DNA of 32,000 nucleotides from Prochlorococcus marinus str. NATL2A (GTDB lineage: Bacteria; Cyanobacteriota; Cyanobacteriia; PCC-6307; Cyanobiaceae). The stretch is from positions 630,001 through 662,000 of the forward strand of contig NC_007335.2 of NCBI RefSeq assembly GCF_000012465.1, read 5' to 3'. Position 1 is the first letter of the stretch. Every line of letters starts with the position of its first letter. Below are positions 1 through 31,541 of the stretch, in pieces. Under the pieces are notes generated by a model that searched no databases, was not told the DNA's origin, and saw nothing but the letters and a program-made list of their open reading frames with translations. Position numbers and translations under genes: made by a program.

Positions 1-503
1 CCAGATAATATAAGCCTTAAAAAAGCAGTATCATTGTCCATTTTATTTCTACTTCCAATAGCATCTCTTGGGATTAAAATGTTTAATCCTTGTTGTAAAA
101 GATCCATCGATGTTTGAAGAACACATATATGACTCTCAATCCCACTTACTATAATATTTTTAAAATTATAATCATTTATATACTTAATAAAGTTCTTATT
201 GTTAATACAACTAAATTCCATTTTTTCAAATTTAGGATATTCATTATTATCTGTAATAGATTCTAGAGTCTTCCCAAGCTTCAATGGATTTTGTTCCGTA
301 ATAGCGATACGAACATCAAGCAAATTGCAGGTATCAATAAGCTTTTTTATGTTAAATATTAATTGTTGATTGTCTTTTATATTCTTTATAAGCTTTTTTT
401 GCACATCTACTATAAGTAGTAATGTTTCATCCTCTACTATTATTTTATTATTATTATTATTTGTATTGATTGGGTTTGGATTTGTTTTTATGAATTGATC
501 CAT
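1..503 (-). CDS. isochorismatase-family (cysteine) hydrolase; C-terminus runs off the window
   Basis: Not in the ORF track because there is no stop in the window. My translation of the minus strand from ATG (503-501) reads MDQFIKTNPNPINTNNNNNKIIVEDETLLLIVDVQKKL...AITEQNP...NIIVSGIESHICVLQTSMDLLQQGLNILIPRDAIGSR. The LLIVDVQ, TEQ and GIExHICVxQT blocks are the isochorismatase/YcaC-type signature. Confidence 0.8.
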   Translation of the reverse strand, partial: MDQFIKTNPNPINTNNNNNKIIVEDETLLLIVDVQKKLIKNIKDNQQLIFNIKKLIDTCNLLDVRIAITEQNPLKLGKTLESITDNNEYPKFEKMEFSCINNKNFIKYINDYNFKNIIVSGIESHICVLQTSMDLLQQGLNILIPRDAIGSRNKMDNDTAFLRLILS

Positions 504-640
504 CTTAGAATTTCTTTCTGTTTATCTAAATATAAATCATCTAATAAATTTAAACATAATTTTTATCGAAAAGAATCTGAATAAGCTTTCCTTTTTGTTG
601 CGGGCTGTTCTCATTACGCTATGCTATTGAGAAAGCAAAG

Positions 641-1105
641 TTGATATTGGTTTCTCCCCCTGCCTATCGAAGTCATCCTTCTCCTTTTGAATCTGGCCTT
701 CGTTCAGATGGTAAAAGAATGACCCCTCAAAGGAAAAAGGTTCTTTCTCTGTTTGAAGAGATTGGCTCTGGAATCCATCTCAGCGCGGAGGAGGTACATT
801 CCAAGTTGACAATTTCTGGGGAGAAGGTTTCTCTTGCGACTATTTACAGAACTTTAAGACTCTTGGTCAAGATGACCTTCCTTAATGAACTTGATTTAAG
901 TGAGGGAGGGAATAGGTTCGAATTGCTTAGTCATGACCATCCAGATCATCATCATTTGATTTGTATTCGTTGTGGTAGAACTGAAGAGTTTGAAAATAAT
1001 AATGTTATTAATGCTGGTAAAGCAGCAGCTAAAAACTTTGGATTTAAATTATTGGAGTCATCGTTAAATGTGAGAGCTTTATGTCCCAAGTGTTCTAACA
1101 AATAA
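641..1105 (+). CDS. Fur-family metalloregulator (Fur/Zur/PerR type not resolvable)
   Basis: The motifs LRSDGKRMTPQRKKVL, SLATIYRTLRLL (winged helix), HDHPDHHHLICIRCGRTEEF and C-terminal CPKC are typical Fur-family metal sites. The N-terminal helix (GLRSDGKRMTPQR) lies upstream of the first ATG (719). The TTG at 641 or 647 is therefore the more plausible start. Confidence 0.85.
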   Translation: MILVSPPAYRSHPSPFESGLRSDGKRMTPQRKKVLSLFEEIGSGIHLSAEEVHSKLTISGEKVSLATIYRTLRLLVKMTFLNELDLSEGGNRFELLSHDHPDHHHLICIRCGRTEEFENNNVINAGKAAAKNFGFKLLESSLNVRALCPKCSNK

Positions 1106-1114
1106 ACCTTTTTT

Positions 1115-2059
1115 TTAAGTTAATTCTCCACCACAACTTGAACCCGCTCCAGCAGTACATCCAAAACAATGATTCCCTGTTGAAATAGGATTATTCTTTA
1201 AAGAGACAAGTGGAATCAATAGATCATTCAAATGCTTCACGTTACCATTTCTCTTCATCCCAAGTTGTTGGTTGAAATCACAATCATATAAAAAACCTTT
1301 CCAATCAACACTAAGAGTTGATCTACACATTACTGAATTAATATTTCCTGGATTATGATTATCTTTGAGTAATTTATTATACTCTTCTAGTTTTCCAATT
1401 GTTTTTAAATAGTTCTCATATCTATTAATTGGCATATTCGCTAAAACATATAAATTCGAGAAAAAAATACCATACCTTTCTTTTAGTTCGCGTCTATAAA
1501 TATCTTCTAGCTCTTTTTGAGATGGTGGAAGTTGTGGAGTACTTGGATTATAGACTAGATTCAAAAGCAGACCTTTATCTTTTATGCCGTAACCTAAATT
1601 GTTAAGCTGTTTAAGAGCTAATATACTTTTTTCAAAAACACCTTTTCCTCGTTGTTTGTCTACATTGCCCTCTAGATAACAAGGAAGAGATGCAGTTATT
1701 TGTACTTTATTTGATGCTAAAAAACCTGCTAAACTTTCGTAACCCGGCTCTTTAAGGATTGTTAAATTACATCTGTCCATAACTTCAACATTAAGACTAC
1801 GTACTTCTATTACTAATTGTTTAAATTTAGGATGAAGCTCGGGGGCTCCTCCGGTAATATCTAGAAGCTTAATTTCGTTAGCTTTGATAACTTTAGGTAT
1901 GAGTTTTATGATATCATCGCTCATCATTTCTGTTCTGCTTGGACTAGAATCAACATGACAATGACTGCAGGCTTGATTACATTTATAGCCTATGTTTATT
2001 TGCAAAGTATCAAGATAGTCTCTCTTGATTTTTGGGAATTTTTTTTTAATTATCTCCAT
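1115..2059 (-). CDS. arsS: radical SAM / Cys-rich C-terminal domain protein of the ArsS (arsenosugar biosynthesis radical SAM) family
   Basis: It has a CNQACSHC (CxxxCxxC) radical-SAM cluster motif near the N-terminus after LQINIGYKCN. The C-terminal tail is Cys/Gly-rich (NHCFGCTAGAGSSCGGEL), as in the radical SAM/Cys-rich family now named ArsS. Its length of 314 aa fits the family. Assignment is by remembered family features, not by search. Confidence 0.75.
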   Translation of the reverse strand: MEIIKKKFPKIKRDYLDTLQINIGYKCNQACSHCHVDSSPSRTEMMSDDIIKLIPKVIKANEIKLLDITGGAPELHPKFKQLVIEVRSLNVEVMDRCNLTILKEPGYESLAGFLASNKVQITASLPCYLEGNVDKQRGKGVFEKSILALKQLNNLGYGIKDKGLLLNLVYNPSTPQLPPSQKELEDIYRRELKERYGIFFSNLYVLANMPINRYENYLKTIGKLEEYNKLLKDNHNPGNINSVMCRSTLSVDWKGFLYDCDFNQQLGMKRNGNVKHLNDLLIPLVSLKNNPISTGNHCFGCTAGAGSSCGGELT

Positions 2060-2145
2060 AAAGATCTATATATGAAAAGCATCAACTTTCATTATAGTTA
2101 AAATATTTACTTAAGTGAGAATTTAAAAAAAAATTTACTAATAAG

Positions 2146-3345
2146 CTAAAAGTTACTAGCTAATTGTTTAAACCACTTAATATATTCTTTTGGCCCATCA
2201 TTAATAATCATATTGAATTTCAAATCATCATTAGGATCACTAACTCCTTTCATATCAGTTCCATTTATTCTTGGTCTTAATACCTGCTCGTTGCAGCTGT
2301 TGACAAATACAACTTGATTATCTTTCTTATATGATTCTCCCAACCTTTGGATCAATGTTAAGAAACCTCGATCACTTCCACCTCTTAACCAAGAATTATC
2401 TTTGTTATCTTTAACCGAGGTTACCGTATCGCCAACACCTACTAGAAGTGGCATTTGTTCGTGCGGTATTTTATCTCTGCATAGCTTTATTAATTGAGCA
2501 TGTGTCTTTGGAGCATTCCTGACATTGAAGTTTTCACCGAATGGATAAACGCCAGTTTTATTTGCTATGTATTTATTTAATAGAAATAAAAGGCCTGCTT
2601 CTTTTATTGCACCCTTGATAATGAACTGGATATCTGTTGTTCCAAATTCATTTTGAGTTGAATATTTCATTATTTCTCTGCCATCTCTTATCCCTAGATT
2701 AGGCATCAAATGCAGATAAAAAGAATTATCTAAGCCAAGATTTTTAGATTCTTCTAGTAAATTATTCATTATTTTTCCCATAATCAATTGCAAATCTTTA
2801 ACTTTTTGAAAATCATTTTTAACGTAGCTAAAGATTTCATTAAAATTCAAAGTAGGTGTAAAGCGTGTATCACATACAGCTACATCAATTAATTTATTTC
2901 TTTTCTCATTTGAAAGGTTTGGTAAGAATTTTTTTAATTCATTAGTTAACATTGAACTCATCATCTTTGGAACTTCTGCTAAAAAGTTAATCTCATTATC
3001 TTTGAGTCCTGGATAGGATGAATTACTAAATCTATCTTGATACTCAACTCCACACGCTGCAAGGCCAGGTAAGTATAAGCCATTTTCTTTTGCAGTTGTT
3101 TTCGAATCAAGTGCCTTTTCTACTAAGCGATTAACGCCTCTTTTGCCTTCATGCTCCCCGCAGGTTAGAACTGCAAACTTCTCTCTTAATTTTGAAACGT
3201 CCTTCACATATTCTTTGTTGATCTCTCTTTGAAGTGGGTCTTGAACTAGTGGAATACAAACGCCGTCAAGATCCTGAACTATTAAAATATTTTGTTCGTT
3301 GATTATAATGTTAATAAGTTCTTCTTTCATCTTAAATATTTTCAT
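2146..3345 (-). CDS. stpA: StpA/GgpP-family phosphatase (glucosylglycerol-3-phosphate phosphatase-like, HAD-type DxD motif)
   Basis: Blocks ILIVQDLDGVCIPLVQDPL, LTCGEHEGKRGVN, GLYLPGLAACGVEYQDR, GTTDIQFIIKGAIKEAGLLFLLNKY, GVGDTVTS and RGGSDRGFLTLIQRLG match my memory of Synechocystis StpA. The 399 aa length is comparable. It is co-directional with arsS-like, separated by an 86-bp gap. Confidence 0.7.
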   Translation of the reverse strand: MKIFKMKEELINIIINEQNILIVQDLDGVCIPLVQDPLQREINKEYVKDVSKLREKFAVLTCGEHEGKRGVNRLVEKALDSKTTAKENGLYLPGLAACGVEYQDRFSNSSYPGLKDNEINFLAEVPKMMSSMLTNELKKFLPNLSNEKRNKLIDVAVCDTRFTPTLNFNEIFSYVKNDFQKVKDLQLIMGKIMNNLLEESKNLGLDNSFYLHLMPNLGIRDGREIMKYSTQNEFGTTDIQFIIKGAIKEAGLLFLLNKYIANKTGVYPFGENFNVRNAPKTHAQLIKLCRDKIPHEQMPLLVGVGDTVTSVKDNKDNSWLRGGSDRGFLTLIQRLGESYKKDNQVVFVNSCNEQVLRPRINGTDMKGVSDPNDDLKFNMIINDGPKEYIKWFKQLASNF

Positions 3346-3508
3346 AAAAGAAGCCTTTAAATATTAGTTTACACTAGATCAAATGAAGATACACTTTCTT
3401 GATAGTTATTGTTCTTAAATAATTATATAGAGATATATTCAGTATAGTAAAAACTATTTTTAAAAGTTTCTAATTATTGTATATAATCTAATTGAATGAA
3501 AATGAACT

Positions 3509-5050
3509 GTGTTTGATAAGAATTTACGTAATAGCTTTTTTGCTGAGCCTTATTCAAGTGAGCCTTTAGCCATAAGAATCAGAGAGGTTTTGAATGGAAA
3601 AGTCGGATTTTACAGTGTCGGCTTATACCCTGCCTCTCTTGCCTATAACTGTGCGTTGCAAAATGAAGGCTTCAACATTCTTCTAGCCCCAAGAGACGGT
3701 AGAGAACTCTTTGGAGCTTTTTCTGATATTGATCTCTCTGAAATGGATAACGGTATAAAAAATAAAATTGAATCTATGGCAATCCCAAATGAAGATAAAT
3801 CAGGCAGATATAATACTCTTAAGGATTTATTGATTAACTGTGAATTAGTTGTTTTGAGTTCAAATAGTAAACATATAATAACTGACCTTGATTTAGCATT
3901 CAAGCTCAGAAAAGAGCTAAATCGAGATAATGTTTTAATTGCATGCTTGGTTGGATCATTTTGCCATGATCATAATTTGAACGAATCTTTTGTGTTGTGC
4001 GAAAAATTAAATAAACTAGCTTTCTTTTCAGGGTTTCATCGACACGGAGCTCTTCGAAATCCATTAGATAGTTTTACAGCTAACTTTTGTCATCCAGACT
4101 CTATGAATGCAATATTAGGTGCAAAATTATTAAATAAAATTTCACCAAATATTCAAGTTTCTGCAGGTATACATAATGTTGAAGGTCAATACATTAAAGC
4201 TGCTAAAAATATATCTTCAATCTTTGCGGGTTTTGGTCATACTTTTCATAAGAATAATCCTGGATTGCTACCAACTTTATTAACTCTATTATTAGATCAG
4301 TGCTTAGATCAGGCTGCCTACGTTTCAATGAGTCGAACAGATAGGGAGGACTTATATTCTAAACAACCTTTTCCTATTACCGAACTTGGATATAGCGTCC
4401 AACGCATAGAGGCCTCCTATGTTAAGGATGGAGATTTTGTTCAGGTTAGAGATCATACTTTTACTCAACTGAAAGCTATGGTTGCGGATGTGAGAGGGAG
4501 TATGATGTTGCCTGTAAGTGGTAACCCAACTAGGAATTTTCAAGCTGGTCAAGTCCTGGCTGAGAGGATGATTGAGTATAAAAGATGTCCAAAAGGTGTA
4601 GATGAATTTATAGAATGGTGCGAAAGATCGGGTCTTAAGCGTGGAGCTTTAGAAGGAATAAACTCTTTAAATTATTGGCCAAATATTTTAAGAAAGTATT
4701 CAATACCCTTGAATAATTCCTCAATGATTAATCTTTTATATATGTGTATATTGGGACCTGTTGAGATAAAAAATTGTATTTATAATGTTATGTCAAGTAG
4801 CCGTGAATTAGCCAACTATTGTCAAGAATCTGTTAAGTCATCACAAAACAAGAAAATATCTGAAGCACTAGATAATTTCCATTTAAAAACTTCTGTAGAT
4901 TTTGTAACAAAGTCACTAATTGATGATGATAAATTATTTTTTGAAAATAATGAGATTGGCTTTGATAATCCACTAGGAGCACAAAATATGCCGATTTATA
5001 ATAAAGTTATTGATTACATGGAGACCTATTTATTAGAATCTAATCTATAA
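3509..5050 (+). CDS. GpsA-like (NAD(P)-dependent glycerol-3-phosphate dehydrogenase fold) protein with a degenerate dinucleotide loop and a ~180-aa C-terminal extension; function unknown
   Basis: GTG start. The N-terminus KVGFYSVGLYPASLAYNCALQNEGFNILL aligns to GpsA IGAGSWGTALA...G..V.LW, but GxGxxG is replaced by SVGLYP. The central FFSGFHRHG...VEGQYIKAAKNISSIFAGFG aligns to GpsA ISGP.FA...GV.LGGA.KNVIAI.AG. The remainder has no family I recognise. Confidence 0.5.
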   Translation: MFDKNLRNSFFAEPYSSEPLAIRIREVLNGKVGFYSVGLYPASLAYNCALQNEGFNILLAPRDGRELFGAFSDIDLSEMDNGIKNKIESMAIPNEDKSGRYNTLKDLLINCELVVLSSNSKHIITDLDLAFKLRKELNRDNVLIACLVGSFCHDHNLNESFVLCEKLNKLAFFSGFHRHGALRNPLDSFTANFCHPDSMNAILGAKLLNKISPNIQVSAGIHNVEGQYIKAAKNISSIFAGFGHTFHKNNPGLLPTLLTLLLDQCLDQAAYVSMSRTDREDLYSKQPFPITELGYSVQRIEASYVKDGDFVQVRDHTFTQLKAMVADVRGSMMLPVSGNPTRNFQAGQVLAERMIEYKRCPKGVDEFIEWCERSGLKRGALEGINSLNYWPNILRKYSIPLNNSSMINLLYMCILGPVEIKNCIYNVMSSSRELANYCQESVKSSQNKKISEALDNFHLKTSVDFVTKSLIDDDKLFFENNEIGFDNPLGAQNMPIYNKVIDYMETYLLESNL

Positions 5051-5060
5051 AATAAACCCT

Positions 5061-6224
5061 ATGAATTTTGAAAAAATAAGTTTAATTACTTCCAATTTTT
5101 TTGATAACAGTAAACTTTTAAATATTGATTTTATAGATTCTGGCCTTATAAATAAAACGTATATTATTGAACATCTAATTAATGGGAAAAAGTCTAAATT
5201 TGTTTTACAGTGTCTTAGTAATATCTTTGAATCCTATGAGAAAATTAATATGAATCATAAATTAATAACTAATCATATTAAAAATAAAATTAAAGGAAAT
5301 TATCTTAAATCTAGCAATCAAAGATGGGAAGTTCCAAGTTTAATTAAGTGTAATTCTAATAACCTTTTTGTATTTCCTTTTTGCGAAGGTTTTTGGCGAG
5401 CTATGGAATATATAGATGACACTTTTAACTTTGATATTTTAGAAGATAATAAAATGGCTTATCAAACTGGTCTTGGTCTTGCTAAGTTTCATGAAATATG
5501 CTCTGATATTGACCTTGCAAAATTAGAAAATACTATTAAAGATTTTCATGATACAAAAAAATACATTGATCAATTTCATATGACTATTAAAGATTTTAAC
5601 TTTATTAAATTAGACGATAATGTAAATAAAAGGGTTCAAAATTTAATTGATAGTTTATCCAATCATATCTTATATATTGAATCTTTATTAGGATATTTAA
5701 ATAAAAAATCAATACAACCTTGTTTAATTCATGGTGATCCGAAGTTAAGTAATTTTCTTTTTGATATTCAAAATAAATATGTTGTTTCTTTGATTGATCT
5801 AGATACTGTATCTTCTGGTTGTTTGCCTACTGATTTGGCTGATTGTATTCGATCCATTTGTAATATTGCTGGCGAGGATCCAGATAATATAGAGAATGTA
5901 TTTTTTGATGTCGATTGTTTTAATTATTTTCTCAAAGGTTATTTCTCTTCTTCTAATAAAAATTATGATTACGGTTTTGGTCTCCTTCTCGAATTTATTT
6001 ATTTGATAATTGTTGAATTAATTATTAGATTCCTGAATGACTTTTTACAATCAAATAGGTACTTCAAAGTAAAATATCAAACTCACAATCTATATAGAGC
6101 AGAGGTGCAATATCGATTGCTTGCTAGTTTCATTACTCAAATTCCTACTTTGTCAAATTCACTTCTTGGAATTGGGATTTCTTCAAACTCAAATTTTGTC
6201 TTCGATGTACAAAATATTGTTTAG
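5061..6224 (+). CDS. APH/choline-kinase-fold phosphotransferase (small-molecule or sugar kinase-like)
   Basis: It has an N-terminal nucleotide-loop-like DSGLINKTYII and the catalytic block LIHGDPKLSNFLFD (HxDxxxxN). This is followed by SLIDLDTV, the metal-binding D of the DxD/DFG-equivalent. It starts 10 nt after the preceding stop and is very AT-rich. Confidence 0.7.
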   Translation: MNFEKISLITSNFFDNSKLLNIDFIDSGLINKTYIIEHLINGKKSKFVLQCLSNIFESYEKINMNHKLITNHIKNKIKGNYLKSSNQRWEVPSLIKCNSNNLFVFPFCEGFWRAMEYIDDTFNFDILEDNKMAYQTGLGLAKFHEICSDIDLAKLENTIKDFHDTKKYIDQFHMTIKDFNFIKLDDNVNKRVQNLIDSLSNHILYIESLLGYLNKKSIQPCLIHGDPKLSNFLFDIQNKYVVSLIDLDTVSSGCLPTDLADCIRSICNIAGEDPDNIENVFFDVDCFNYFLKGYFSSSNKNYDYGFGLLLEFIYLIIVELIIRFLNDFLQSNRYFKVKYQTHNLYRAEVQYRLLASFITQIPTLSNSLLGIGISSNSNFVFDVQNIV

Positions 6225-6278
6225 GGTTTCACATAATCCAACTTATCACTAAAGTAAAATCGATATTTATTTTTTCTT

Positions 6279-6974
6279 GTGGCAAAGGAATTAACCCATA
6301 GAGCCGATGAGCTTAAACAATTAGGTTGGAATCAGGAAGATTTGTACAAATACATTGAGTTATGGGATTACAGACAAAGGTGGGGCTCTATAAATCTAGA
6401 GAGAGAAGATAGGTTGTTTCTAAGAAAAGCAGAATCTTTATTGCCTGAAATTTCTAAAAGCAAAGTTTCAGTTAAAAAACCTCTCAAGGAAAAGTCATAT
6501 TATTGCTGGATTCAGTTTTTCCTGAATGAAATGAATGATTTTGAGTTGAATGAAAATTTAGACGATGGCATGAGAGGTATTTGGCCTATTTTTCTAGAGG
6601 AGGAACTTCGAGTAATTGATTATTTCGAACCAGTTTTAGGCTTGCCGGATACAATTAAGGCTAAATTAATCGGCCCAATTAGAGAGAACTTGGTCAAAAC
6701 AGCTTTAGAAATCTACAAAGATTCAGTTATTACAAAGCAATTTGATTTCCAAAGGGCTTTGGCTAATGCCAAATCTAGTGGTAAAAACTCTAGTTGGAGA
6801 TCTCTTAGAGATGGTGATTTTGAGAGCAATCAAGACTATCAAATTATTTATAAAGATAACGTTCTTGAATTCCGTAAGAAAGTCAATGAAAAGCTTTTAT
6901 CATTTATAAAAGAGAATTTACCATCTCTAGCTGAGTCAGATAAATCTTTACCTCCTAATGATTGGATAAATTAA
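6279..6974 (+). CDS. hypothetical protein (231 aa, soluble, charged)
   Basis: A long ORF with a GTG start, co-directional and tightly spaced with its neighbours (19 nt before metY). I recognise no motif. Confidence 0.55.
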   Translation: MAKELTHRADELKQLGWNQEDLYKYIELWDYRQRWGSINLEREDRLFLRKAESLLPEISKSKVSVKKPLKEKSYYCWIQFFLNEMNDFELNENLDDGMRGIWPIFLEEELRVIDYFEPVLGLPDTIKAKLIGPIRENLVKTALEIYKDSVITKQFDFQRALANAKSSGKNSSWRSLRDGDFESNQDYQIIYKDNVLEFRKKVNEKLLSFIKENLPSLAESDKSLPPNDWIN

Positions 6975-6987
6975 TAGCCAATTCTGA

Positions 6988-8352
<1,365 letters not shown>

Positions 8353-9312: not shown

Positions 9313-10584
9313 CTATTTTAATGGTGGCATTATATTTCTTGGATCATGAATGGCTTTGAGCTCTTCTAAGTTTGGGAGCCAATCTTCGAATGCGGATGAT
9401 AATTCTTTTTTATGCCATTCTAAATGTGGGTGTATTTGCGCAAGATGAACCCCAGGGCATATGAATTCTAGATTATTCCAACACTCTGTCATCCATTCCA
9501 GCGTTCTTTTTCTCTTCGCTTGATTGTGGGCTTCCCAAGCACCGTTAATCCAAGGTTTCCAGATTGCATCACGATGAATAAAAGAAGTGTCAAGATCATT
9601 TAAATGTGTTAAACCTCCTAATTGTTGAGAAGCTATATAACAACTTTTGTTTGGCCTTTTATTTATTAATTCTTTAAGGATTTTTAATACTTGTTTATTT
9701 TTTTCTTGCCAAGCAGGGCCTAATAACCCAAGCACTTCAGAATGATTTGAATTATTATAATTATTGTTATTTCCAAAGCTTAAATTAGGTAAGGACTTCA
9801 TATTGTTGAATTTATTAATGATTCTATTTCGAGAGAATGGCAATTTTTCTAATAATTTAATCATGACGGATTCATCATCAGTATTTTTAATTTCACCAAT
9901 TGCATGAGCAAAAATATCGTCTCCATATATCCATTGAAGGCTAAGAGAATTAGGCCAACTTTCGGCTTGATTAATACATTCAGATAGCTCAGAAAATGAA
10001 AGATTTGCTGTCCAGCTTAATAGTGGTCTTAATGGCTGAGTCTTTAACTTTACCTGTGTGATTATGCCAAGAAATATAGCTGCTCCGCAAAGGGCTTTCC
10101 ATTCATTAGTCAACTCATTTTTGGTATTTGGTCGTAGTAAATGAAACTCTTTTCCATTTCCCCAAAAACCCTTAATCTCTATGATTTGATCAATTGCTAA
10201 TCCTTTGCTCCTACTGAGTGGACTTATTCCACCGGTCAAGATATATCCCATTCCTGTATTTCCAGACAAACCAATTGGAAAACTTCTTTTATGCTTTTCT
10301 AGAAAAGAGCATAATTTTCCCATCGTTACCCCGGCTTCAATTTCTACATGCTTTTTTTTTAAATCGAAAGATATTTTTTGGTAGTTTTTTCTTAGGTCTA
10401 AAATCCAATGTTTATCTGCGGCGGCTCTACTTGTGGTTCCTCCACTAGATACTAAAAATGGACTGGAAGTTTGTTGGGATGATTTCAGTGATTGAAAAAA
10501 TTCTGAGTTTACAGCTTCAAAAACCCCAAGGACATCACTATCATTGGAATTTTGATTTTGTAGTGATAACGAATTTCTAATAAT
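9313..10584 (-). CDS. FAD-linked oxidase (PCMH/FAD_binding_4 type with BBE-like C-terminus); 5' end extended beyond the ORF-track ATG to a putative ATT start
   Basis: The track ORF (9313-10323) begins inside the FAD-binding domain (GVTMGKL...GLSGNTGMGYILTGGISP). The same frame stays open for 91 more codons up to a TAG (plus-strand cta at 10597-10599). This stretch encodes ...PFLVSSGGTTSRAAADKHWILDLRKNYQKISFDLKKKHVEIEAGVT, the expected upstream part of the domain. There is no ATG, GTG or TTG in that stretch. AAGGAG (10593-10588) precedes ATT ATT (10584-10579). The C-terminus IHDPRNIMPP resembles a BBE tail. Confidence 0.6.
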   Translation of the reverse strand: MIRNSLSLQNQNSNDSDVLGVFEAVNSEFFQSLKSSQQTSSPFLVSSGGTTSRAAADKHWILDLRKNYQKISFDLKKKHVEIEAGVTMGKLCSFLEKHKRSFPIGLSGNTGMGYILTGGISPLSRSKGLAIDQIIEIKGFWGNGKEFHLLRPNTKNELTNEWKALCGAAIFLGIITQVKLKTQPLRPLLSWTANLSFSELSECINQAESWPNSLSLQWIYGDDIFAHAIGEIKNTDDESVMIKLLEKLPFSRNRIINKFNNMKSLPNLSFGNNNNYNNSNHSEVLGLLGPAWQEKNKQVLKILKELINKRPNKSCYIASQQLGGLTHLNDLDTSFIHRDAIWKPWINGAWEAHNQAKRKRTLEWMTECWNNLEFICPGVHLAQIHPHLEWHKKELSSAFEDWLPNLEELKAIHDPRNIMPPLK

Positions 10585-14794: not shown

Positions 14795-16891
14795 ATGCTT
14801 ATTAAGAAAAATATTAATCACTCTAAATATATTTTTTGGATTTCAATTTTATGTATATGGATTCTTTCGACCATAATTGATCGTATTTGGTGGAATTTAT
14901 ATAGCATTACTCCTTCATGGGATCAGGCTGACTATCTCAATAGTGCTATTGACCATGCCCGTGCACTCTCTTTTTTGGGAGCAGATGGAGCTTCAGACTT
15001 TAATTCTTTACTAGATAAATCGCCAAAAATTCCTCCTTTGGCTTCAATAATCAATGGAGCCGTAATTGCCTTTGCTGGTGATGCTCCTCATCAGGCGGCC
15101 TGGTCCTTAAGTTTTTGGAATGGATTCTTTATCTTTAATATTGCTTCGTGGGGACTTTATTTGAGTGGGAAAAAACTTGGACTTTTTTGTGTTCTTATTA
15201 GTGCATGTTCTCCTTTCTTATTTAATCTAAGAACTGATTATTTATTGGAGTTACCTTTAATTTCCGCTATTACATTTTATTTATTTCATCTAGGAAGGTG
15301 GAGTGATAAATCAATCGGAGGTAAATGGATTCAATTGATAATTGCTACTTTCGCATGCTCTTTTTCTTTATTGATTAAGCAAAGTTCTTTATTAGTTATC
15401 ATACCTTCCTTATTATTTGTCTTTGTGCTTTCTTTTAAAAGAGATAAAAAATTTCGATTACAATTTTTATGCTTAGTTCTTATCAATATTTTAGCAATTT
15501 TACCTTGGTTTTTTCACAATTGGATAATGATATTAAGTGGAACTTATAGAGCTGTTTTTGAATCGGCGGCGATAGAAGGTGATCCTTCTATTTTAGGTTT
15601 TAAAAGTATTTTCTGGTATTTCCCATATTTAGATAATCAGTTTGGAAGTATTATTTTCTTTTTTGGATTGTCAGGAATACTATTTGCATTTTTAACCTAT
15701 GTAAGATCTTTTAGATCTCAAGCAAGATTAGTCGATATTTTTAATGAGAATAATTATAAATGGACATGGATTTATTTTAATTTAATAACATGCTGGACTT
15801 TTACAACTTTCATTCCTAACAAGGATGAAAGATATATAGCATGTACAATCCCGTTAATTATTTTACTGCTAGGCTTTGGATTTACTAAGTGGAGTGATTG
15901 GCTAGATACTTATTTTAAATTAAACTCTTATATTTTATTATTTATTCCTGCTGTCAGTTTTCTATTTTCCAATTCTATTAATAAGTTTAACACTTTACAA
16001 AATATTGCAAGTAAATATTATCCTGTTAAAGATATTTTATCGATAGTTAGATCTGATCAGACTATCGATAAAAAAGAAACAGTTATTGTTGTTCCAAGCA
16101 CCCCTGAAATTAATCAGCATAATGTAAGCTATTTTGGAAGAATGCAAGGTGGAAATATTTTAGGCAGACAACTTGGGCAATCTCTTTTGCATATAGAACC
16201 AGTGCTTAAATACTCTAATTGGATTATTTTGGCAGACGGAGATCAAGGCTCAGTTCCAAGTAATTCACTAGTTCTAGACAAAGCGATTAGAGATAGTTCT
16301 CTTTTTATACAAGTTCAAGAATTTCCTAGAGAAAAAGAAGGAAGCTATACTCTTTGGAAGCGAAGATCAAGTTCATTTAATCCAAATGAATTTCATAATA
16401 GATTTATTGAACTAGCAAAGGGGATGGAGAAAGGTCCATTAGGTATTAAATTGATTTTTGATGAAATAGAAATAGAACATATGCTTGATGGGCATTTAAA
16501 ATATCAAAGTATAGTTAGAGATAAGGCATTATCCAAAATAAGTTCAGACCCTGAAAATGTTGAATCTTTATGGTCCTTATCGCTTTTGAAGATATTATCG
16601 AATAGACCTTATGAAGCTGATATTTATTTAAGAAATTTAGAAATCTTGTTGCCAAATAATCCTTGGCCAAGTGCTTATAGAATAATAGTTAACTTTGCCT
16701 CTTGGAATCCTTGGAAGGCCTCATTAATAGCCGATAAAGCTAATAAAAGAAATCCAAATTACTTTCTAAAAAGTTTGAGTGATATAAGTGCAATTTTTAG
16801 GGGATCCTTTTGGCGATTAAAGTCTGCTTTAAATAGTGTTCCGAATGCAATAAAAAGTGTTGATGAATCTCTAAAACCAATAGAAAAATAG
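14795..16891 (+). CDS. GT-C fold membrane glycosyltransferase (ArnT/PMT-like) with a soluble helical-repeat C-terminal domain
   Basis: There are about 10 or more predicted TM helices over the first ~400 aa. A first-loop acidic motif SWDQADYLNSAID resembles the DE/DxD loop of the ArnT/PMT family. The ~250-aa hydrophilic tail has TPR-like helical character. It starts 8 nt after the pentapeptide gene stop. Confidence 0.6.
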   Translation: MLIKKNINHSKYIFWISILCIWILSTIIDRIWWNLYSITPSWDQADYLNSAIDHARALSFLGADGASDFNSLLDKSPKIPPLASIINGAVIAFAGDAPHQAAWSLSFWNGFFIFNIASWGLYLSGKKLGLFCVLISACSPFLFNLRTDYLLELPLISAITFYLFHLGRWSDKSIGGKWIQLIIATFACSFSLLIKQSSLLVIIPSLLFVFVLSFKRDKKFRLQFLCLVLINILAILPWFFHNWIMILSGTYRAVFESAAIEGDPSILGFKSIFWYFPYLDNQFGSIIFFFGLSGILFAFLTYVRSFRSQARLVDIFNENNYKWTWIYFNLITCWTFTTFIPNKDERYIACTIPLIILLLGFGFTKWSDWLDTYFKLNSYILLFIPAVSFLFSNSINKFNTLQNIASKYYPVKDILSIVRSDQTIDKKETVIVVPSTPEINQHNVSYFGRMQGGNILGRQLGQSLLHIEPVLKYSNWIILADGDQGSVPSNSLVLDKAIRDSSLFIQVQEFPREKEGSYTLWKRRSSSFNPNEFHNRFIELAKGMEKGPLGIKLIFDEIEIEHMLDGHLKYQSIVRDKALSKISSDPENVESLWSLSLLKILSNRPYEADIYLRNLEILLPNNPWPSAYRIIVNFASWNPWKASLIADKANKRNPNYFLKSLSDISAIFRGSFWRLKSALNSVPNAIKSVDESLKPIEK

Positions 16892-20839: not shown

Positions 20840-21523
20840 ATGAATCGAACGCCGGAACCAGAGCTCATGCAAAGCCCTTCGCAGGTAAGGGCTTACGCGG
20901 ATGCAGATTTCTCTAGGAGTGATTCTATGGTGGTTAAATCGCTTGAAAAATATTTAAAAAAAGTAGGAAGAACTTTTAATAAAACTGATTTAATTTTTGA
21001 TATAGCATGTGGACCAGGCAATATTTCAGAGAGAATTGCCAAAAATTGGCCTTTCGTAAATGTTGTGGGAATTGATGGCTCAAAAGAAATGTTGGATGAA
21101 GCAGAAAAGAAACTTTCCAAAAATATTACGAAGAATCTCTCTTATCAATTGATTGAAATTAATTCAATAGCCAAAGGTGAAACACATTTTCCTTTTAAAG
21201 CTGATGTAATTGTCAGTAATAGTGCCTTGCATCATTTTCATTATCCTTATAGGTTCTGGGGTGCATTAAAAAAACTTGGTAGAACCAAGTGCATTCATGT
21301 TCATCGTGATTTAATAAGGCCTACTTCTGAAGAAAAAGCATTTGAGATACAAGAAAAACATCTTTCAAATTCCCCAGAAATTCTAAAAAAGGATTTTTAT
21401 GCATCTCTCAAGGCATCATTTACAGTTGATGAAGTAAATCAACAGTTAATTGATGCAGGGTTATCTCAATTAGAGGTCTTTCAAGTTGATGAGCTTTATT
21501 TTGAGATTATTGGGTGTACTTAA
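20840..21523 (+). CDS. class I SAM-dependent methyltransferase, substrate unknown
   Basis: Motif I is IFDIACGPGNISERIA, with the post-I acidic residue in VVGIDGS. The 227 aa length fits. It is divergent from nrdJ. Confidence 0.7.
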   Translation: MNRTPEPELMQSPSQVRAYADADFSRSDSMVVKSLEKYLKKVGRTFNKTDLIFDIACGPGNISERIAKNWPFVNVVGIDGSKEMLDEAEKKLSKNITKNLSYQLIEINSIAKGETHFPFKADVIVSNSALHHFHYPYRFWGALKKLGRTKCIHVHRDLIRPTSEEKAFEIQEKHLSNSPEILKKDFYASLKASFTVDEVNQQLIDAGLSQLEVFQVDELYFEIIGCT

Positions 21524-28341: not shown

Positions 28342-29892
28342 CTAACTAATGAAATTGTTGGTTGAATTGTTTAACCAATAATTTTGAGAAGTGTTAAATA
28401 AAAATTCTCCTGAAATTGTTAATAAAGAGAAAGTAGCAGTTATTATCATAACTTGTGCCCAATCGAATGAGCTTAGTGATTCCTGTAATTGCCACCCTAA
28501 TCCTACTCCTCCGACTGCTCCTATAATTGCTGTTTCCTTTAGGATTACGTCACTTCTGTATGCTCCATAAGCTAAGTAACTATTACTTTGGGGGGCTAAT
28601 ATTCCATAAAGCGTTGCTGATTGCTTGCTTGAACCATTGCTTTTAATCGCTCCATAAATACTTTTTTCTTGATTTAGTATGTTATCTGTAAGTAACCTTC
28701 CCATGACTCCCATATGTGTAATTCCAAGTGATAATGCGGCTACAGATATACTAGGATTAGTAAAAAGAAGAATAAGTATAGTGGTCAATGGAGGAGGTAT
28801 CAATCTAAAGAAGATCCAAATAAGATTTTGAACTTTTAGAGAGAATTTACCTGGAAATAATACTAGTAAAAGTGGAGGTGTCCCTATTGCAATCCCAGAG
28901 GCAAATAAAGTTACTAAAATTGTTGTAATAATTAGTTTAAACAGAGTTAAGTTATTAAATCCATTTCTTATCTCTACGAATGAAGGTAAATTTAAATACG
29001 AAAAGCTTAATGGAGTAAATAACTCAAAATTTAGATTATAAAGCAAACCAATACCTAACGATAGAGATAGTGTAAATATTGAGATTGAAATTAAGAAAGA
29101 ATTTTTTAAACTAATATTGTCAGATAAATAACTTCTAGAAAATCTTATAAATTTCTCTAATAAAATTATTACTAACCAAAGCATCCACAAACAAGTCCAC
29201 ATCTCATTGAACTCAAAGGATTTTAAAGTTAAATATAGTTCTGTTCCTATACCTCCTAATCCAAATATTCCAAGTAATGTTACACCCCTAATTGCACATT
29301 CAAATCTGTAACTTCCATATGTAGATACGATAGGTATTAACTTTGGTAGTAGAATAGTTATAAATGAGCCCATAATATTAGATCCAGTTTGCTTAATTGC
29401 TATTAGAGGTTGTATGTCAAAACTATCTAGTTGCTCTGAAATTACTCTTGCTGTTAAGGCTGAATAGGGAATGACTATAGATATAATTGCCACCCAAATA
29501 TTCAAACCTAAAATTTGAATAAATAGCAAGCCCCAAACTACTTCATGTATTGATCTTGGAATTGCTAATGAGTATTTTATGAATTTACCTAAATAAGAAA
29601 ATTTAGGAATACGTTTCCAAAATAAATCTGTAGATAGTACACCTAAAACAATTCCAATAAGCATACTTATAACCCAGCTAGTTAAAGCAGTAGCAATTGT
29701 TATTTGAAGTCCTTCCCATGCGCTTTTTACTACTTCTTGATTAAACGATGGTTTTATTGCTGAGCTTAAGAATTGAAATATGATATTTAGACCCCCAATA
29801 TGAAATCCTTTGATGATTTCTATTAGAATGGGAATGTAGGCTATTGATGGAATTAATGTTAATAAAGTTGATACTGGTTTTATTAATTTCAT
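28342..29892 (-). CDS. phnE: phosphonate ABC transporter permease (duplicated/fused PhnE, 516 aa)
   Basis: It is polytopic with two repeated permease halves, each carrying an EAA-like loop region. It lies immediately downstream of phnC (6-nt gap) in phnD-phnC-phnE order. Confidence 0.8.
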   Translation of the reverse strand: MKLIKPVSTLLTLIPSIAYIPILIEIIKGFHIGGLNIIFQFLSSAIKPSFNQEVVKSAWEGLQITIATALTSWVISMLIGIVLGVLSTDLFWKRIPKFSYLGKFIKYSLAIPRSIHEVVWGLLFIQILGLNIWVAIISIVIPYSALTARVISEQLDSFDIQPLIAIKQTGSNIMGSFITILLPKLIPIVSTYGSYRFECAIRGVTLLGIFGLGGIGTELYLTLKSFEFNEMWTCLWMLWLVIILLEKFIRFSRSYLSDNISLKNSFLISISIFTLSLSLGIGLLYNLNFELFTPLSFSYLNLPSFVEIRNGFNNLTLFKLIITTILVTLFASGIAIGTPPLLLVLFPGKFSLKVQNLIWIFFRLIPPPLTTILILLFTNPSISVAALSLGITHMGVMGRLLTDNILNQEKSIYGAIKSNGSSKQSATLYGILAPQSNSYLAYGAYRSDVILKETAIIGAVGGVGLGWQLQESLSSFDWAQVMIITATFSLLTISGEFLFNTSQNYWLNNSTNNFIS

Positions 29893-29898
29893 TATGAA

Positions 29899-30633
29899 TT
29901 AAAATAGCCAATCAAGCTCTGATTGATTAATATTATGAATTTGTCTATCTATTACAATCTCTCCATCTTTTAACCCAATAACTCTATTGAAATTATTTAT
30001 TAAATGAATTTGGTGAAGACTTATAAGTATGGTCTCAGGGATTTTAATTCTAAGATAATTTTTTTGATTTATAAATAAATTTAAGATATTTTTTGATAAT
30101 AGAGGGTCTAAATTTGAGAAAGGTTCGTCTCCAAGCAAGATCTCTGGTTCTTGTCTTAAAAGACGTGCAATTGCTATTCTTTTTTTCTGACCACCAGAAA
30201 GTTTATTTACATAGGAATAAATAGTTTTTTTTGGGAGAGAGACCGCTGCTAGGCAGTCTTGGCATAAACCTGTATCTATGACTCCTAGGAGATTTTTTAA
30301 AGCCCATATGAAATTGTGTTTACCTAATGCACCGCAGTTTATATTCTGAGCGACATTTAGCTCTTCTATTAAAGATAAATCCTGCCATATAGTTCCTATT
30401 TTTGAGTACTCAATATTTGAGATATTGTTAATGTGAAAACCTTTCCATATTACATCTCCTTCGTTCGGGATTAGTGATCCATTCGCGATCGAGATTAATG
30501 TACTTTTGCCGGAGCCACTCTTGCCGATAAGCGCTATCTTCTCACCTTGATTTATTGTTAAATTAATATCTTTTACTCTAATGCTTTCTTTACTCCTATG
30601 GCTTATATTCTTTAATTCTAGTAACTTAGTCAC
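29899..30633 (-). CDS. phnC: phosphonate ABC transporter ATP-binding protein
   Basis: Walker A is GKSGSGKST, the signature is LSGGQKKR and Walker B is LLGDEP. The GTG start overlaps the phnD stop (GTGA). Confidence 0.8.
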   Translation of the reverse strand: MTKLLELKNISHRSKESIRVKDINLTINQGEKIALIGKSGSGKSTLISIANGSLIPNEGDVIWKGFHINNISNIEYSKIGTIWQDLSLIEELNVAQNINCGALGKHNFIWALKNLLGVIDTGLCQDCLAAVSLPKKTIYSYVNKLSGGQKKRIAIARLLRQEPEILLGDEPFSNLDPLLSKNILNLFINQKNYLRIKIPETILISLHQIHLINNFNRVIGLKDGEIVIDRQIHNINQSELDWLF

Positions 30634-31541
30634 TTAATCTTTCCAATTGTTCTGCCTACCTTTTCTATTTGATTATAATTCTCGTTTTTTGATATTATAA
30701 ATTCCTTTGCGCTAAATAATTCAAGAATTTTTTTTTGTTTTTTTGACTTTTCATTGAAACGTAAAAATACATTTGTAAGGTCTTTCGTAAAACCTTTTTT
30801 GAACTTTTTATCTAGGTTTCCTTGAGCAATCCAATGATAATTATGATAAGAAGGAGTCTTCCAAATCACAAAGACTTTTGAGGGATCTACACGTCCACTC
30901 TCAAGATTTCTTTTCCATACTTCTTCGCTAAGAGCACCTGCCTCATATGAACCACTTTGCACAAGCATTAATGTTGCATCGTGGCTACCACTAAAGCCTG
31001 GGCTTGCACCTTTGAAATCTTTAAGTTGCAAACCTGCTTTGTTTAAAAAATATTGGGGCATCAATCTTCCTGATGTTGAACTTTCAGAGCCAAAAGTAAA
31101 ACGCTTGTCTTTTAGTGTTTTTAAGTCATTTATGTTATTTATTTTTTGGATTGAACTTTTCTTGTTTGCGATAAAAACACTATGGAATTTTTCATCAATA
31201 TCTCGTTGTGCTATTACCTTGGATCCTTTGCTTTGAAGTCTTGCTTGTACACCCGTTAAAGCACCGAACCATACTAAATCTAAATCTCCGGTCCTAAAAG
31301 CTGTTACAGCTGCAGCATAATTAGTAACTGGTTTATAACGGACCTGAACATTGAGCTGCTCGCTTAATTCAGAGGATAAAACCTTATATAAACGATTGAG
31401 GTGCTCTGGGTTTTGATCTGGTATTGCCCCAATATGAAGGATCTCTTCTGCTTTTAATGAACCAATAGAAAATAAATTAGATACTGATAAAACTGCAATA
31501 GCTATTTTTATAAGTTTTATTCCTCTTATCTTTTGATTCAT
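30630..31541 (-). CDS. phnD: phosphonate/phosphite ABC transporter periplasmic substrate-binding protein
   Basis: A signal peptide (IAIAVLSVSNLFSIGSLKA) is followed by LHIGAIPDQNPE and the DLVWFGALTG blocks typical of PhnD-type binding proteins. Gene order with phnC and phnE agrees. Confidence 0.8.
   Translation of the reverse strand: MNQKIRGIKLIKIAIAVLSVSNLFSIGSLKAEEILHIGAIPDQNPEHLNRLYKVLSSELSEQLNVQVRYKPVTNYAAAVTAFRTGDLDLVWFGALTGVQARLQSKGSKVIAQRDIDEKFHSVFIANKKSSIQKINNINDLKTLKDKRFTFGSESSTSGRLMPQYFLNKAGLQLKDFKGASPGFSGSHDATLMLVQSGSYEAGALSEEVWKRNLESGRVDPSKVFVIWKTPSYHNYHWIAQGNLDKKFKKGFTKDLTNVFLRFNEKSKKQKKILELFSAKEFIISKNENYNQIEKVGRTIGKIK

Follow-up and report, generated by a model that had tools for sequence, protein, structure and literature searches.

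The window analysed here, a stretch of 32,000 nucleotides from the chromosome of Prochlorococcus marinus str. NATL2A (NC_007335.2, positions 630,001 to 662,000), carries near its start four genes that encode an ArsS-family radical SAM enzyme (arsS), a phosphatase of the StpA/GgpP family (stpA), a protein with the fold of glycerol-3-phosphate dehydrogenase (GPDH) that we refer to as ORF3, and an APH-fold kinase (Table 1). The original prediction had joined the four into one candidate pathway leading from the ArsS product to glycerol arsenoriboside. Our analysis led to a different picture, which we consider probable: the genes lie in a conserved stretch of the picocyanobacterial core chromosome that would hold three separate units and not one four-gene pathway. 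The divergent pair stpA and ORF3 would form a module of glucosylglycerol (GG) and glycerol-3-phosphate metabolism, with StpA as the GG-phosphate phosphatase (GgpP). ORF3 would bind or interconvert dihydroxyacetone phosphate (DHAP) and glycerol-3-phosphate, or bind the glycerol-phosphate end of GG-phosphate, and would in this way provide or regulate the acceptor for GgpS. The arsS gene would stand beside stpA by inherited gene order, with no functional link, and the kinase, of the N-acetylhexosamine 1-kinase (NahK) type, would have its own role in amino-sugar or cell-wall sugar recycling, or a salt-related one. What is new here is ORF3, a previously undescribed GPDH-fold family that occurs almost exclusively in picocyanobacteria and is linked with GgpP. 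It is a candidate for a missing piece, either in the supply of glycerol-3-phosphate or in control, of the principal route by which marine Synechococcus protect themselves against salt.

The phosphatase was readily assigned. StpA passes the TIGR02399 equivalog model with 536.2 bits (cut-off 365.5) and matches PF09506 over its full length with 592.6 bits (cut-off 25), in agreement with the StpA-like call made earlier. Across 69 sequences, including those of WH7803-type Synechococcus and of the ggpS-cluster loci described below, conservation of the motifs QDlDGVC, GvgDTvTS and RGGSDRGF reaches at least 97%, or nearly so. They are common to the orthologues of marine Synechococcus, a group reported to accumulate GG (PMC6753628), and every shared motif is kept in the StpA of the window.

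The link between the pair and GG metabolism comes from a second genomic arrangement. In three loci of a high-GC Synechococcus lineage (L072, L073 and L082), the genes stand in the order MscS, GlpK, GlpD, GH13, StpA divergent from ORF3, the ATPase of an ATP-binding cassette (ABC) transporter, two permeases, a sugar-binding protein, GgpS (a GT20 enzyme) and HtpG; as far as the flanking sequence extends (10 kb in L072 and L073), it showed no ArsS, Fur, kinase or MetY. The GT20 enzyme was identified as GgpS by TIGR02398 (733 bits, cut-off 569); GlpK passes NF000756, and StpA passes its own model. Furthermore, a metagenome contig (L090) independently repeats the arrangement with the divergent StpA and ORF3, and ORF3 is thus co-located with ggpS, a sugar ABC transporter and glycerol genes in four loci whose flanks differ from those of the window. 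Since ggpS adjoins glpD at about 25 other GgpS loci, and glpD, glpK and gpsA have been described as co-localised with ggpS (PMC6753628), a glycerol-3-phosphate-type protein beside a GG gene is the expected pattern.

Compared with the known cyanobacterial GG system (GgpS, GgpP/StpA and GgtABCD), the window shares a StpA that passes the GgpP equivalog, orthologues of the pair that cluster with ggpS, glpK, glpD and the four genes of a sugar ABC transporter, and a ggpP that is salt-induced in marine Synechococcus. It differs in that no GgpS was found in the window, Prochlorococcus is reported not to make GG, and ORF3 is no described component of the system and matches no gpsA model. An MscS-type mechanosensitive channel gene stands upstream of the pair in both arrangements (L086, 5302-6318, upstream of the window start; L073, 2815-3852). 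It lies upstream of Fur in the Prochlorococcus loci, and the frame from MscS to the pair is common to the two arrangements, while the genes between differ; this suggests an old osmotic-stress neighbourhood.

The original prediction had called ORF3 GpsA-like, which held for the fold and failed for the family. In Pfam and NCBIfam, ORF3 finds no family at E-values up to 0.01, and it fails PF01210, PF07479 and the GpsA models, on which a genuine GpsA scored 183 and 194 bits. A profile search of PDB sequences gave nothing significant, nor did a single-sequence hhalign comparison with E. coli GpsA. In contrast, the AlphaFold2 model, built with 30 homologues (predicted local distance difference test, pLDDT, 81.8; predicted template modelling score, pTM, 0.84), retrieved NAD(P)-dependent GPDHs as all of its 11 best PDB matches in Foldseek, with E-values of 4e-8 to 2.5e-6. 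The template modelling (TM) scores, normalised by target length, were 0.57-0.71, with the top value of 0.71 for Archaeoglobus 1txg, at about 12% identity; at its C-terminus, ORF3 carries about 150 additional residues that form a helical region.

We then aligned the ORF3 profile with six GPDH sequences by hhalign, the E. coli one having been verified against Pfam and PDB. Collinearity extends along nearly the full length of GPDH, yet the alignment is statistically weak (P = 0.0034). In it, the invariant K233-N234 of ORF3 falls on the Lys-Asn pair of GPDH and the invariant R342-N343 on the Arg-Asn pair, which in human GPD1 grips the substrate phosphate. By the same weak alignment, four of the seven human GPD1 positions K120, K204, N205, D260, T264, R269 and N270 are kept (K233, N234, R342 and N343), and V148, S331 and P335 stand at K120, D260 and T264. 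At the GxGxxG positions, ORF3 has S36, G38 and P41 (S-x-G-x-x-P), which are invariant or nearly so within its family. ORF3 thus shares with the NAD(P)-dependent GPDHs (GpsA/GPD1; PF01210 and PF07479) the two-domain fold, the collinear though weak alignment and the Lys-Asn and Arg-Asn pairs, and differs in the missing Pfam and NCBIfam match, the altered GxGxxG and the C-terminal helical extension. Because no model matches, the GxGxxG is atypical and three catalytic positions are replaced, we do not regard ORF3 as a member of the GpsA family; judging from the retained residues, it plausibly still binds a glycerol-phosphate-like ligand.

The structural matches of ORF3 include the osmoregulatory GPDH of Dunaliella salina (6iuy), a bifunctional phosphatase-GPDH fusion. 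The likeness lies in a unit of phosphatase and GPDH fold in an osmotic-stress setting; in the window, by contrast, there are two separate divergent genes, the phosphatase is of the StpA type and the organism is not known to produce glycerol.

When 1.84 billion representative proteins were searched exhaustively, only 122 proved to be related to ORF3, and almost all of these are sequences of picocyanobacterial type or fragments. Two distant homologues of 662 and 676 amino acids, with 27-29% identity, come from uncultured bacteria (L004, 470-2500; L005, 10001-11989) and have long C-terminal extensions and unrelated neighbours; one of them has a sub-threshold match to the GPDH N-terminal domain (E 0.0094). 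A follow-up search with these two gave no further relatives, and their contigs were uninformative.

To place the four genes in their wider context, the ORF3 alignment was scanned against 185,579 species genomes, which gave 206 relatives, and eight window proteins were located in the loci of the best 80 of the 206. The nearest relatives of the locus are those of low-light clade I (LLI) Prochlorococcus, of the NATL/MIT0801 type, where the order Fur, ArsS, StpA, ORF3, kinase, o231, MetY and MetA is identical and tight; assembly GCA_047285905.1 encodes an identical ORF3 protein. In marine Synechococcus and Cyanobium, the block order is kept with extra genes inserted. The Fur gene is present upstream of ArsS in nearly all related loci, and o231 is syntenic in nearly all picocyanobacterial loci. 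The neighbour that ORF3 keeps most consistently is StpA, located upstream in 56 of the 57 loci with at least 9 kb of upstream sequence, compared with 52 of the 57 for ArsS. StpA and ORF3 are always divergent, with a gap of at least 79 bp, and their trees are congruent with each other. The distance between ArsS and StpA ranges from 76 to 2683 bp, exceeding 300 bp in 16 of 61 loci, with other genes inserted. The gap between ORF3 and the kinase reaches 5.4 kb, the insert in L001 being SbcC/SbcD. Of the loci whose sequence reaches far enough, five show no kinase over at least 7 kb downstream; two of these, L003 and L038, retain ArsS, StpA and ORF3.

Conservation of the four-gene neighbourhood, which the original prediction had offered as a check, was thus found in picocyanobacteria, but it does not discriminate between the readings. 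Because the block also holds plainly unrelated genes (Fur, MetY and MetA), the synteny alone reflects common descent, and the block has been inherited vertically across low-light Prochlorococcus and marine Synechococcus. No high-light-clade Prochlorococcus appears among the ORF3 relatives listed, whose matches reach down to 56% identity, and the high-light clades probably lack ORF3. All four genes are intact and under purifying selection in about 25 LLI genomes, with ratios of non-synonymous to synonymous substitution (dN/dS) of 0.12-0.20 for StpA, within 0.10-0.22 for ORF3 and ArsS, and 0.27-0.35 for the fast-evolving kinase, which is about 30% identical to its Synechococcus orthologues; MetY and o231 gave 0.02-0.06 and 0.07-0.19, respectively.

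The arsS product passes the TIGR04167 equivalog (448 bits, cut-off 300) over residues 11-313 and thus falls within ArsS, as had been proposed. It matches PF12345 (DUF3641) with 177.7 bits and PF04055 (Radical_SAM) with 40.8 bits. The CX3CX2C motif (C27-x3-C31-x2-C34) is accompanied by the Cys-rich C-terminal DUF3641 domain, and 62 orthologues show conservation of CNQxCxHC and HCfGCTAg. The equivalog match, the CX3CX2C motif and the Cys-rich domain are shared with ArsS of Synechocystis sp. PCC 6803, where arsS is co-transcribed with arsM. Unlike there, the arsS of the window does not adjoin arsM, and a model search of the 32-kb window found no ArsM: its sole small methyltransferase (20840-21523) scores about 20 bits against ArsM-type models with cut-offs above 500. 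The absence of both ArsM and a GgpS-type enzyme from the window had been noted in the original prediction. The arsS gene would be a stand-alone ArsS-family radical SAM gene. The literature found on ArsS describes the ArsS step only, and, to our knowledge, no enzymes have been assigned to the steps that follow it towards arsenosugars.

The kinase was expected to belong among the anomeric sugar kinases, and it indeed proved to be a NahK homologue. Its family match to PF01636 (APH) is weak (37.9 bits, cut-off 23.2), and it passes no NCBIfam model. However, its profile matches NahK chains over residues 9-358 with an E-value of 1.2e-36. Its structural model (pLDDT 68.8) retrieves NahK as the top six Foldseek matches (E about 1e-16, TM 0.68-0.82), the next family following at 5e-8. 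The catalytic HxDxxxxN and DxD motifs, HGDpKLsN (H224-G-D226...N231) and DLDT (D246-L-D248), are invariant. The kinase thus resembles NahK of Bifidobacterium (4wh1, 4ocj) in the full-length profile match, the TM scores and the catalytic motifs, and differs in an identity of just 21-24%. A C1 ribose kinase like 5-methylthioribose kinase (MtnK), as the arsenosugar proposal needed, was not borne out, with no MtnK among the 50 best structural matches. Homoserine kinase type II, considered in view of metY and metA nearby, was rejected, given that no NCBIfam model matches and that NahK is about eight orders of magnitude better in E-value. By these comparisons, the kinase is an anomeric sugar kinase homologue of the hexosamine type.

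AmgK is a relative of NahK in cell-wall sugar recycling; a literature search for AmgK in cyanobacteria returned nothing useful. No MurU-like or lacto-N-biose pathway genes were seen near the kinase. Downstream of the kinase, marine Synechococcus encode a protein of about 190 amino acids without family and then an SLT-domain lytic transglycosylase (L001, 13575-16364; L042, 11577-14306; RS9907, peg.1866-1868), and this downstream SLT-domain gene hints at a role in cell-wall sugar recycling.

The distribution and expression of the GG genes have been described for picocyanobacteria. All marine picocyanobacteria carry ggpS and ggpP, as do 16 of 17 brackish but only 2 of 67 freshwater ones (PMC9361551), and both genes are induced at high salinity in Synechococcus RS9907 (PMC12834511). 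In the tables of the latter study, the gene order around ggpP mirrors that of L042: FUR ... putative ArsS, ggpP, PaO ... GST, putative ORF3, COG2334 (the kinase), a hypothetical protein and the SLT-domain protein. With the genes matched by order and annotation and not by sequence, ggpP and the kinase appear among the genes listed as responding significantly to salinity and belong to the high-salt cluster, a large one of 754 genes, whereas the genes taken as ArsS and ORF3 are absent from the significant lists. The available part of the supplementary text of the NATL1A salinity paper does not mention the genes of the locus.

For Synechococcus, a ggpS elsewhere in the genome together with salt-induced GG thus explains stpA; for Prochlorococcus, going by the literature, it does not. 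According to reviews, Prochlorococcus lacks the genes of GG synthesis and accumulates sucrose and glucosylglycerate (PMC6753628 among them). Since StpA and ORF3 are nevertheless intact under purifying selection while ggpS is reported to be lacking, the GG explanation is incomplete in the organism of the window, which leaves a small opening for the arsenosugar idea or for a glycerol-producing role. The survival of the pair in a Prochlorococcus said not to make GG is a testable puzzle on the evolution of osmolytes during genome streamlining.

A metagenome scan for a Prochlorococcus ggpS found low-GC ggpS contigs, whose adjacent StpA is of a different lineage and only 45-49% identical to that of the window, and these contigs do not show a ggpS in the window organism. 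In such Prochlorococcus-like contigs (GC 0.31-0.35), ggpS lies between a GAPDH gene and pyrB (L099, 4288-6755, compared with L102, 5775-5778). The flanks are about 99.6% identical, and a segment of about 2.4 kb with stpA follows ggpS in some and is missing in others, a presence/absence polymorphism within one population. A possible counterpart of these contigs is the Prochlorococcus of the Red Sea, for which GG genes have been reported.

Further observations weigh against the assignment of ORF3 to a GG module and against the separation of the units. The mapping of the ORF3 residues relies on the weak alignment described above, in which the three GPDH catalytic positions are not conserved. The low-GC Prochlorococcus-like contigs carry ggpS and stpA without ORF3 within 3.5-4.5 kb. 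In the euryhaline Synechococcus WH5701, stpA, two GH13 genes, glpK and ggpS form one cluster that adjoins nadC, with no ORF3-like gene listed beside stpA (peg.2799-2806, supplement of PMC12834511); picocyanobacterial GG clusters are therefore modular, and ORF3 is dispensable for GG synthesis. Apart from the two distant homologues, ORF3 does not exist outside picocyanobacteria in the search of 1.84 billion proteins. The kinase begins 10 nt after ORF3 in LLI with no terminator-like site found, so that ORF3 may be co-transcribed with the kinase, and likewise stpA with arsS.

Some of these points, with others, could mean that no functional link exists among the four genes, the adjacency of stpA and ORF3 being inherited order and the role of ORF3 unrelated to GG. 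Since the ORF3 family occurs almost only in one vertically evolving clade, independent tests of the adjacency are few. The neighbours of the two distant homologues are unrelated, and ggpS-stpA clusters without ORF3 exist. ORF3 occurs without StpA within 10 kb in L085 and within 6.5-7 kb in L043 and L052, and the RS9907 gene taken as ORF3 is not significantly salt-regulated and falls outside the ggpS/ggpP expression cluster. Against this, the pair has been kept together while both flanks were replaced (ArsS/Fur and the kinase/MetY in one arrangement, glpK/glpD/GH13 and ggt/ggpS in the other), and ORF3, by its fold and the residues it has retained, seems made for a glycerol-phosphate ligand, in keeping with the chemistry of StpA beside it. 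We regard this reading of four unlinked genes as unlikely. Rather doubtful is the idea that Prochlorococcus, without ggpS, has re-used StpA and ORF3 to turn DHAP into free glycerol, for glycerol-3-phosphate homeostasis, or to finish a different glyceryl glycoside. The yeast Gpd/Gpp pair and the Dunaliella phosphatase-GPDH fusion are models for a DHAP-to-glycerol route. The pairing of a phosphatase with a GPDH fold would follow the logic of 6iuy, the StpA motifs are unchanged, and purifying selection on both genes in LLI, with ggpS reported absent, would fit such a re-use. However, the literature consulted gave no report of glycerol accumulation by Prochlorococcus, whose reported solutes are sucrose and glucosylglycerate. 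ORF3 lacks, by the weak alignment, the three GPDH catalytic residues and the GxGxxG, which makes a redox activity doubtful, and an action of StpA on free glycerol-3-phosphate is hypothetical.

The arsenosugar pathway itself would run as follows: ArsS makes dimethylarsinoyl-adenosine, the adenine is removed, the kinase adds a phosphate at C1 of the 5-arsinoyl ribose, glycerol-3-phosphate is bound or supplied by ORF3, which also assists the coupling, and StpA dephosphorylates the product to glycerol arsenoriboside. All four protein types are as the original prediction said, the LLI genes are tightly packed with no terminator-like site found, and all four are intact under purifying selection. StpA and ORF3 have no assigned job in a Prochlorococcus reported to lack ggpS, ORF3 keeps the phosphate-holding GPDH residues by the weak alignment, and the steps after ArsS are, as far as we know, unassigned. 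If true, the idea would close the gap in the known synthesis of marine arsenosugars, and would do so in a phototroph that ranks among the most abundant of the ocean. The evidence favours a different reading, and we judge this pathway highly improbable: the divergent StpA and ORF3 occur in complete GG clusters without ArsS or kinase, Fur, MetY and MetA share the synteny block, other genes interrupt ArsS and StpA in about a quarter of the loci (16/61), and L003 and L038 do without the kinase. In addition, the kinase is NahK-like with no MtnK in its top 50 structural matches, the window has no ArsM, whereas arsS of Synechocystis is co-transcribed with arsM, ggpP and the kinase of RS9907 respond to salt while the gene taken as ArsS does not, and no glycosyl-transfer enzyme is present. 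A broader form, in which the LLI StpA and ORF3, with the possibly co-transcribed kinase and possibly ArsS, make or finish a glycerol-linked sugar other than GG, is also very unlikely; its most striking candidate would be glycerol arsenoriboside. The fallback offered with the original prediction, a compatible-solute pathway, comes nearer to the GG-related module that we prefer: the function would be a solute one unrelated to arsenic, but with the known GG system in place of a new heteroside.

Table 1. Features of the locus, in window coordinates
Feature	Position	Strand	Evidence and remarks
Fur-family regulator	641-1105	+	PF01475, 107.7 bits; context, member of the syntenic block
ArsS-family radical SAM enzyme, 314 amino acids	1115-2059	-	TIGR04167, PF04055, PF12345
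StpA/GgpP glucosylglycerol-3-phosphate phosphatase family, 399 amino acids	2146-3345	-	TIGR02399, PF09506
Divergent intergenic region between StpA and ORF3	3346-3508	.	conserved TTGTATATAAT block at 3477-3487
ORF3, 513 amino acids, GTG start, GPDH fold	3509-5050	+	structure model; no Pfam or NCBIfam match
NahK-like APH-fold kinase, 387 amino acids	5061-6224	+	PF01636; NahK profile match
o231, 231 amino acids, between the kinase region and metY	6279-6974	+	no Pfam or NCBIfam match

The four open reading frames have the strands, coordinates and spacings originally given, with 86 bp between arsS and stpA, 163 bp between the divergent stpA and ORF3, and 10 nt between ORF3 and the kinase, in a low-GC window (GC about 0.24-0.41). 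The AT-rich divergent region had been proposed as a promoter. When the window was aligned with 11 related LLI Prochlorococcus loci, the block TTGTATATAAT, about 20 nt 5' of the ORF3 start, was indeed conserved, and a TATAAT match ends at 3487. However, promoter-like matches over positions 500-7100 were at chance level (35 found, 31.8 expected), so that this match lies within a scan that is not above chance overall. The same promoter/terminator scan of the locus found no terminator-like sites, and an Rfam scan gave a transfer RNA as its sole match.

The remaining observations concern other genes of the window. The Fur reading frame encodes 154 amino acids from a TTG start, with the Pfam match covering residues 24-144. 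For this DNA, the publicly annotated gene has 77 amino acids only, and that call is probably too short. A reading frame for 336 amino acids without family match lies at 9313-10323 on the minus strand, and another for 698 amino acids at 14795-16891 on the plus strand has a weak, sub-threshold match to the PMT_2 glycosyltransferase domain. Finally, the minus strand at 28342-31541 encodes a phosphonate-type ABC transporter set of a binding protein (PF12974), an ATPase and a large permease of 516 amino acids.

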